A stretch of 64,000 nucleotides of DNA from the sequence record MN715356; one strand, 5' to 3'. The notes beneath the pieces are model-generated. The model was not told where the DNA came from, did no database searches, and was given only the letters and a program-made list of their open reading frames with translations. Below are positions 40,802 through 41,240 of this stretch, one piece after another; position 1 is the first letter of the stretch; every line of letters starts with the position of its first letter. The position numbers were made by a program, and so were the translations under genes. Origin of the DNA: Escherichia phage vB_EcoP_EcoN5.

Positions 40802-41026
40802 TTAGATACCTTTAAGTTTAAGAATTTCGTTACGAGTTTTTTGAATCTGAGCTTCAATTTCGAAGTAGTCATTGAACGCATCGTTCTCTACTTCATCGGA
40901 TGGTGCATCAATCAGACCGAAAGCGAACGGATACAGCTTTCGCTGCTCCGTTACTAGTTCGATATGAACTCCTATGTAATACTGTAGGAGAGTAATCTTC
41001 GGTTTCTTAGGAACCAGATTTGACAT
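40802..41026 (-). CDS. small protein between amidotransferase and ATP-grasp genes
   Basis: 74-aa co-directional ORF. Confidence 0.35.
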   Translation of the reverse strand: MSNLVPKKPKITLLQYYIGVHIELVTEQRKLYPFAFGLIDAPSDEVENDAFNDYFEIEAQIQKTRNEILKLKGI

Positions 41027-41240
41027 GAGGTTCTACCTTAATGCCTTTGATTTTTACATAATCAGCAAGCACGTTGTTGATCACCGTTGGGAAAGGAACC
41101 TCAACCTGTGTTTCAAGTACTTGACCAATACCAGCTTGCATCCACTTCTGGATTGCACGAAGGTTGTCACATCCTGTGCTCGTCATCGGGATACGTCGAG
41201 TAGTTACAACGTTATCCAGCATCATCTTACGAATTTCCAT
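41007..41240 (-). CDS. small protein between amidotransferase and ATP-grasp genes
   Basis: 77-aa co-directional ORF. Confidence 0.35.
   Translation of the reverse strand: MEIRKMMLDNVVTTRRIPMTSTGCDNLRAIQKWMQAGIGQVLETQVEVPFPTVINNVLADYVKIKGIKVEPHVKSGS

Follow-up and report, generated by a model that had tools for sequence, protein, structure and literature searches.

DUF7195, a small phage-restricted protein with a fixed place between the amidotransferase and ATP-grasp genes of phiEco32-type amidoligase clusters

Results

Two small overlapping genes lie between an amidotransferase and an ATP-grasp ligase

We examined a 64,000-nucleotide (nt) stretch of Escherichia phage vB_EcoP_EcoN5 (sequence record MN715356; "the window" hereafter denotes this whole stretch), focusing on two small open reading frames (ORFs) embedded in a cluster of amidoligase genes. 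According to the ORF list, ORF A (41007..41240, minus strand) encodes 77 amino acids (aa) and ORF B (40802..41026, minus strand) 74 aa, both from an ATG, and the two overlap by 20 nt (41007-41026). Upstream of ORF A lies the gene for a class-II (Ntn) glutamine amidotransferase (GATase; 41243..43273, 676 aa) and downstream of ORF B that for an ATP-grasp ligase (39597..40799), all four being on one strand. The gaps between the GATase stop and the ORF A start, and between the ORF B stop and the ATP-grasp start, measure 2 nt each, and Shine-Dalgarno-like elements (AGAGG, AAGG, AAAGG) are found 6-9 nt before each start. A first-pass annotation had picked out the pair by size, overlap and position, and on these points it is borne out by the ORF list and by family matches. 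Over 4.5 kb the region shares 94-96% identity with Kuravirus genomes, for example those of phages Paul, IMEP8, SGF2 and NJ01. In phiEco32 numbering, which we took from the annotations of Paul and of Salmonella phage 7-11, the ATP-grasp ligase, ORF B, ORF A and the GATase are homologues of gp80, gp81, gp82 and gp83, respectively.

Antisense ORFs of 40-88 aa are numerous in the window, and since ORFs of this size are frequent by chance, we sought independent evidence for coding. ORF A matched the Pfam family DUF7195 (PF23825) with 61.9 bits over residues 4-67 of 77 (cut-off 27) as well as phrog_9477 (E 1e-43), and ORF B matched phrog_13464 (E 6e-48). Compared with phage Paul, ORF A carries six synonymous and no non-synonymous changes and ORF B four and none, while the comparison of ORF A with Suseptimavirus SU7 gave a synonymous value (pS) of 0.64 and a non-synonymous value (pN) of 0.095, a ratio of 0.15. 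The position of the small ORFs is also kept in distant phages. Judging from the family matches, the purifying selection and the conserved position together, ORF A and ORF B are genuine, expressed-looking genes under purifying selection.

The genes themselves are already known as hypothetical proteins, namely phiEco32 gp81 and gp82 and the family DUF7195. The ORF B protein is 100% identical to that of the phiEco32 locus, 18 of the Kuravirus records listed encode an ORF A protein with 100% identity and 62 of 134 records one with at least 99%, and the annotation of phage 7-11 calls its ORF A homologue phi32_82. Our literature search turned up no functional work on gp81, gp82 or the cluster; genome papers on LUZ24-like phages merely list the cluster genes, and the LUZ24 transcriptome paper gives no gene-level information on the cluster. 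One paper matching "gp79-gp83" was about phages DLP3 and RB69 and unrelated. Neither ORF had a match in NCBIfam or PADLOC.

DUF7195 is a phage-restricted core component of the cluster

Using tblastn, ORF A was detected in 134 phage records, covering phages of Escherichia, Aeromonas, Proteus, Salmonella, Cronobacter, Vibrio and Pseudomonas. Among 5.8 billion proteins, a profile search picked up 205 relatives, and all 120 that were listed are free-standing proteins of 70-111 aa. The gene order GATase, DUF7195, ATP-grasp was seen in 16 of 16 independent phage and metagenome contexts examined. In Bruynoghevirus and Vicosavirus this slot is taken by a divergent DUF7195 copy (PaP4 gp26: hhalign E 2e-4, hmmsearch E 3e-4), and in phage UFV-P2 by the 72-aa ORF26; the divergent version occurs in 102 Pseudomonas-phage records, one of which is labelled "DUF7195 family protein". 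Provided that the two record sets do not overlap, up to ~236 of the 303 phage records that encode the type-2 ligase of the cluster therefore carry DUF7195.

Outside phages the family is nearly absent. Across 185,579 bacterial and archaeal species genomes, DUF7195 matched on two tiny contigs only, one of which encodes a protein 100% identical to that of Kuravirus, which makes contamination likely; a scan of IMG/VR gave two loci only. We found no Rosetta-stone fusion, and in clusters that lack the gene the enzymes conceal no DUF7195 domain. In its common form the cluster thus has DUF7195 as a core component that is essentially exclusive to phages, and the fixed position of DUF7195 between the GATase and ATP-grasp genes, found in phages only, is shown in this analysis. 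For ORF A, these data support a functional link to the cluster.

Conserved residues, C-termini and predicted fold

We next aligned 107 DUF7195 proteins, all of which (107/107) match the Pfam family. Residues R15, P18, R28 and P51 are invariant, and L8, V12, V13, M19, G23, L27 and R31 nearly so. The best-conserved segment, L-x-L-[DE]-x-P-V-V-V-R-K-V-P-M-T-x-x-G-[CS]-D-M-L-R-A-I-R, is nearly invariant from Pseudomonas to Vibrio phages. No Asp, Glu, Lys, Ser, Thr or Cys is invariant across the alignment.

The first-pass annotation had proposed that the two ORFs are substrates or carriers of the neighbouring ligase, as in RimK-type or other peptide-tagging systems, and had pointed to their C-termini as the place to look. 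There, the idea failed: the DUF7195 core ends in K-G-I-x-V, and the 107 proteins extend from 0 to ~30 residues beyond it with no conserved acidic end, ORF A itself ending in HVKSGS. ORF B ends in LKLKGI, and the tails of its relatives are variable and mostly basic. The failure of this C-terminal-tagging test is a new result. Neither protein has the features of a known carrier or tag. The zinc-ribbon Cys4 site and EDWGE tail of LysW-type proteins are absent (ORF A has one Cys and ORF B none, with no conserved C-terminal Glu), the four-helix bundle with a DSL serine that marks acyl carrier proteins (ACPs) is found in neither, and there is no Gly-Gly end or ubiquitin-like or Pup-type tag, the models being helical and the C-termini devoid of a conserved motif. 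The leader/core layout of precursors of peptides synthesized by ribosomes and modified post-translationally (RiPPs) is likewise found in neither protein.

The ORF A model is confidently folded (predicted local distance difference test, pLDDT, ~91) and follows the pattern of a strand, then P-x-T, then two helices. The predicted fold is strand-helix-helix and ribbon-helix-helix (RHH)-like, that is, apparently a binding module, an assignment for DUF7195 that, as a model-based one, is new to this analysis. In its predicted fold ORF A would resemble the RHH superfamily (Arc/MetJ/CopG, NikR, the TraM N-domain, ParD and MazE). It differs from these proteins in an unusually long helix A of 22 residues, an extra N-terminal strand, the lack of a G-x-S/T turn and a probably hydrophobic ribbon face, and neither sequence profiles nor Foldseek link it to them: the DUF7195 profile had no significant sequence match among PDB entries, Foldseek found no PDB match to the ORF A model at E <= 0.001, and a Pfam scan of the 107 members at E <= 10 returned no RHH family. 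By register with Arc, MetJ, CopG and NikR, the solvent face of the ORF A ribbon would consist of V12, V14 and K16 and thus be mostly hydrophobic, while the invariant R28 and R31 would fall on helix A, off the canonical DNA face. The family has a median isoelectric point (pI) of 9.0 and a net charge of +3, with 23% acidic members (UFV-P2 ORF26, pI 4.8).

Searches for a shared operator at 18 loci found no palindrome (half-sites of 5-6 nt, spacers of 0-8 nt) above shuffled sequences. The lone motif in excess, GAGTT-N4-AACTC, is coding sequence, specifying E-F-R-N-S in the amidoligase. Scans for sigma70 promoters and terminators over 38-50 kb gave no excess of promoters over shuffles and nothing near the ORFs, and Rfam had no match between 38 and 48 kb.

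ORF B is a dispensable companion

ORF B is far more restricted than ORF A. By tblastn it was found in Escherichia and Shigella phages and three further phage records only, and an exhaustive profile search of 1.84 billion representatives yielded nine proteins. When all ORFs of the fetched loci (numbered with an L) were searched with jackhmmer, relatives appeared only directly after DUF7195, in L009, L010, L018 and L020 (E 1e-12 to 1e-16). Similar-sized helical ORFs fill the slot between DUF7195 and the ATP-grasp gene ("slot-2") in phages 7-11, YP1 and BUCT695 and at L022 and L023, with weak or undetectable similarity to ORF B (hhalign: 7-11 E 0.24, YP1 0.004, BUCT695 0.001; jackhmmer: BUCT695 0.03), and at least eight clusters have no ORF there. 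Conservation with the cluster hence holds for ORF A, in every context examined, and only in part for ORF B, which roughly half of the clusters lack. The ORF B model is a confidently folded helical hairpin (pLDDT ~91), a generic fold; its invariant residues are Q28, P42, Y54, E58 and Q62, and the loop [DE]-[AS]-P-[ST]-[DE] is conserved. ORF B is therefore a recurrent yet dispensable, fast-evolving companion of the cluster.

Gene callers had left three of the ORF B homologues uncalled (L009 8212-8418, L020 5194-5418 and L018 6191-6400), apparently because each of them shares sequence with the 3' end of DUF7195. Annotation systematically misses small overlapping genes at this position.

The amidotransferase starts at a rare AUU codon

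The GATase gene (41243..43273) is ~113 codons longer than the listed ORF (41243..42934). Its frame is open up to TAG-AAA-ATT-TGT-GGC-ATC-GTA (K-I-C-G-I-V), and relatives begin with M-C-G-I-V from an ATG, which places the start at a rare AUU (ATT at 43273-43271) directly before the catalytic Cys. Consistently, only the full-length protein passes the threshold of the Pfam family GATase_6 (55 bits, versus 23.7 bits for the listed ORF), and its residue 2 aligns with position 2 of GlmS. No family matches the C-terminal ~450 aa, where several CxxC pairs occur. GenBank records shorten the gene as well, starting it at a TTG in Paul and at an internal ATG in SU7. The start error, recurrent in annotation, is corrected here and matters for anyone cloning the GATase.

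Directly upstream of the ATT start lies a conserved leader, a nine-codon mini-ORF (MKGFTLQVD*; 43277..43306, minus strand) that contains an inverted repeat and a Shine-Dalgarno element (CAGGTGGA). The mini-ORF stops 3 nt before the ATT, and the inverted repeat, AAGGGT-TT-ACCCTT at 43289-43302, is unique in the window. A 45-nt leader element is nearly identical in Kuravirus (Paul), Suseptimavirus (SU7) and Aeromonas phage BUCT695, the last of which has a DUF7195 protein sharing only ~42% identity with ORF A. RNA folding of the leader showed no significant stability (z -1.1). The AUU start may be under termination-reinitiation or IF3-type control.

The ATP-grasp ligase is only distantly related to RimK

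The ATP-grasp ligase (phrog_2599, E 2e-183) matched Pfam RimK with E 1e-3 and 19.2 bits, below the cut-off of 21, and its nearest PDB entry is RimK (E 2e-3). In NCBIfam it reached 30 bits with rimK_fam (cut-off 143) and 31 bits with MptN (cut-off 350), both at E 1e-7, and its similarity to graspetide maturase families was fainter (E 2.5e-3; 17 bits versus cut-offs of 350-425). MptN is a RimK-family enzyme that glutamylates a cofactor. With an ATP-grasp that is only distantly RimK-like and with MptN among its best matches, a protein substrate is not implied. The RimK-tagging premise of the first-pass annotation is weak: the nearest relatives include RimK-family ligases acting on small cofactors.

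Residues 319-400 of the ATP-grasp protein match phrog_20552, a group of 82-aa stand-alone proteins (E 3e-54), and the ATP-grasp proteins of relatives range from 286 to 774 aa; from sequence, the C-terminal ~80 residues look like a mobile or fused accessory domain.

The remaining cluster genes and other features of the window

The other cluster genes, likewise on the minus strand, continue the phiEco32 order. Upstream of the GATase lie an Amidoligase_2 (GCS-like COOH-NH2 ligase; gp84 homologue, 43353..44456; PF12224, 33.9 bits versus cut-off 22; phrog_7469), a conserved 205-aa protein present in all syntenic clusters (gp85 homologue, 44453..45070; phrog_4877), the phiEco32-like COOH-NH2 ligase type 2 (gp86 homologue, 45080..45886; PF14395, 34.1 bits versus cut-off 25) and, heading the cluster, a conserved 323-aa protein (gp87 homologue, 45879..46850; phrog_13102), which has a counterpart gene of ~300-350 aa at the same position in relatives. 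The gp85 and gp87 homologues have no Pfam match. On the downstream side the cluster includes a gamma-glutamyl cyclotransferase (AIG2/GGACT; 38154..38573; PF06094, 64.2 bits), a gene that directly follows the ATP-grasp gene in Lyrsu01, PaP4, L011, L012 and L021. Iyer, Abhiman, Burroughs and Aravind reportedly described predicted phage amidoligase systems in 2009, this cluster among them, in the work from which PF14395 and PF12224 derive; it is said to treat the enzymes and not the small ORFs. The operon described here has the same set of enzymes as those systems: two GCS-like ligases, a GAT-II amidotransferase, an ATP-grasp and an AIG2/GGCT cyclotransferase.

The ATP-grasp gene is directly followed, on its downstream side, by the gp79 homologue (82 aa, 39342..39590, minus strand). 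In phiEco32, gp79 is a characterised RNA-polymerase-binding regulator that inhibits sigma70 transcription and activates gp36-dependent transcription (PMC8948821). The operon hence holds a true small regulator one gene away from the small-ORF pair.

NAD-related genes flank the cluster in several distant phages (L004 8701-11839, L009 10038-16249, L011 717-2438, L020 7304-8904 and L023 5426-7828), such as those for ribose-phosphate pyrophosphokinase and NAPRTase in LAh_6 and for NUDIX, AAA_28, NAPRTase and an NMN transporter on metagenome contigs. These flanks could represent coincidental auxiliary or anti-defence metabolism, or a hint at the role of the cluster.

Two further features of the window deserve mention. 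The stretch between the gp79 region and the gamma-glutamyl cyclotransferase gene holds a 178-aa ORF with an HNH/NUMOD-like motif (HRDGNKINN...NLEWVTSQEN; 38563-39099, minus strand), and as the megablast match to Paul and the other listed relatives begins only at ~39110, this ORF looks like a genome-specific homing-endonuclease insertion. Positions 47896-49413 and 49414-50931 form a perfect tandem duplication of 1518 bp (100% identical), which copies a 120-aa ORF (48069-48431 = 49587-49949), a 71-aa ORF and a 77-aa ORF. The matching part of the Paul genome has no duplicated ORFs annotated, and the repeat in the window may be either a genuine recent event or an assembly artefact.

Discussion

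The reading that we favour, tentatively and with a probability of roughly 0.38, is that ORF A serves as a small adaptor or regulatory subunit, docking on the GATase and coupling it to the ATP-grasp ligase. DUF7195 would be a non-enzymatic protein, made in translational register with the amidotransferase and acting by binding rather than by being ligated; it would bind probably as a dimer. Its partner in the slot before the ATP-grasp gene would be ORF B, a helical hairpin that diverges quickly and is dispensable. The model for such a role comes from PurS (PurS/PurQ/PurL) and GatC (GatCAB), proteins of ~80-95 aa that are co-encoded with a glutaminase and an ATP-dependent synthetase and hold the complex together without being substrates. 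ORF A is comparably small and comparably co-encoded with a glutaminase and an ATP-dependent enzyme; the analogy is one of role, not of fold, as ORF A has neither the PurS nor the GatC fold.

The close rival of the adaptor reading is the view that ORF A, with its RHH-like predicted fold, is a dimeric DNA-binding regulator of the operon, an autoregulator or timing switch that possibly senses the pathway product, with the inverted repeat AAGGGT-TT-ACCCTT just upstream of the amidotransferase start as one candidate operator. Taken by itself we consider this somewhat unlikely. The order of strand, P-x-T and two helices speaks for it, as do the prevailing positive charge of the family, the invariant R15 and mostly K16 in the ribbon, and an inverted repeat found once in the window whose flanking 45 nt are near-identical in Kuravirus, Suseptimavirus and BUCT695. 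That repeat is nevertheless restricted to one sublineage and overlaps the mini-ORF and the Shine-Dalgarno element, an overlap that could itself explain its conservation. A protein partner fits better than base reading with a ribbon that is near-invariant while the 18 DUF7195 loci share no DNA motif, with a putative V/V/K face and R28 and R31 placed on helix A, and with the constant linkage to the GATase. A mid-operon, translationally coupled slot would moreover be unusual for a regulator in strictly lytic phages with differing transcription programmes; the acidic members, at 23% of the family, and the lack of RHH support from Foldseek or Pfam point the same way. Phage 7-11, which has no middle promoters and no gp79 (PMC8948821), illustrates that the DUF7195 gene adjoins the GATase gene whatever the transcription programme of the phage. 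Several points weigh against the adaptor all the same: proteins of the RHH type, which the ORF A model resembles, are almost all DNA-binding; the family is mostly basic; the ribbon-face argument derives from register with known proteins, not from coordinates; and rearranged variants of the cluster without DUF7195, in the crAss-like Cellulophaga phage phi14:2 and in Vibrio phage IME234, indicate that the enzymes can work without it.

The remaining explanations are harder to reconcile with the data. A role of the small proteins, and of ORF B above all, in host takeover or regulation, housed in an early/middle operon but standing outside its chemistry, is improbable. Such a role would suit the location of the RNA-polymerase-binding gp79 directly downstream of the ATP-grasp gene, the small lineage-specific ORFs scattered through these operons, and the lineage restriction, fast evolution and generic hairpin fold of ORF B; for ORF A it is at odds with an invariant place next to the GATase across very different phages, and for ORF B with detectable relatives confined to the same slot, which suggests a link to the neighbours rather than a free-standing factor. 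That ORF A, ORF B or both serve as substrate, scaffold or carrier for an amide-linked (for example gamma-glutamyl) adduct, later removed by the cyclotransferase, appears about as improbable. Small carriers encoded beside ATP-grasp ligases do have precedent (LysW-LysX, BtrI-BtrJ-BtrG), ORF A is tightly linked to the ligases, the invariant E58 and the conserved, presumably exposed loop of ORF B could offer carboxylate and hydroxyl groups, and the ATP-grasp is faintly similar to graspetide maturases. LysW, however, is a ~54-aa zinc-ribbon protein whose substrate is ligated to a conserved acidic C-terminal Glu, and like LysW/ArgW with LysX our ORFs are small proteins beside a RimK-like ligase, but they have neither its Cys4 site nor its conserved acidic C-terminus. 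RimK extends ribosomal protein S6 at a Glu-Glu conserved at the C-terminus, and the S6 gene of E. coli does not adjoin rimK; here the ATP-grasp lies far below the RimK family cut-offs, and the ends of the ORFs are KSGS and LKGI, their relatives having variable tails. The pairing of a small ORF with an adjacent ATP-grasp gene also recalls graspetide/microviridin precursors, and the ORF B loop D-A-P-S-D superficially resembles the microviridin P-S-D core, but ORF B is predicted to form a stable hairpin, lacks a leader and core and has no conserved Thr or Lys partner, and the ATP-grasp is nearer to RimK/MptN than to MdnB/C-type maturases. With C-termini that are neither conserved nor acidic, no invariant acceptor residue in DUF7195, none of the LysW, ACP or Gly-Gly features, two proteins predicted to be well folded in contrast to RiPP precursors, relatives of the ligase that include small-cofactor enzymes, and an ORF B that about half of the clusters do without, the substrate or carrier role put forward in the first-pass annotation is not supported; the variable ends and the predicted binding-module fold speak for binding instead.

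We see only a slim chance that an RHH-like DUF7195 tethers the amidoligase machinery to phage DNA, with the cluster installing or processing an amino-acid-type covalent DNA modification. The cluster always lies beside replication genes, the predicted fold is DNA-binder-like and the family is basic; if true, this would explain why Gordonclarkvirinae show remarkable resistance to restriction-modification with no known modification pathway (BASEL extension, PMC11990801). Against it, a DUF7195 gene is present in Pseudomonas phage Rembedalsseter, whose close relative UFV-P2 has the whole cluster, and native nanopore sequencing of Rembedalsseter DNA revealed nicks only and no base modification (PMC11780129), and no enzyme of the cluster resembles a known DNA-modifying enzyme.

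No fewer than 303 virulent phages with sequenced genomes carry the phiEco32-type amidoligase cluster, their hosts including Escherichia, Pseudomonas, Vibrio, Aeromonas, Salmonella and Proteus, and several of the phage groups that carry it include therapy candidates. A DUF7195 protein that is fixed in place, phage-only, apparently non-enzymatic and unlikely to be a ligation substrate redirects experiments away from tags on the small ORFs and towards better targets, namely the formation of complexes, binding to DNA and the search for a substrate among small molecules or host proteins.

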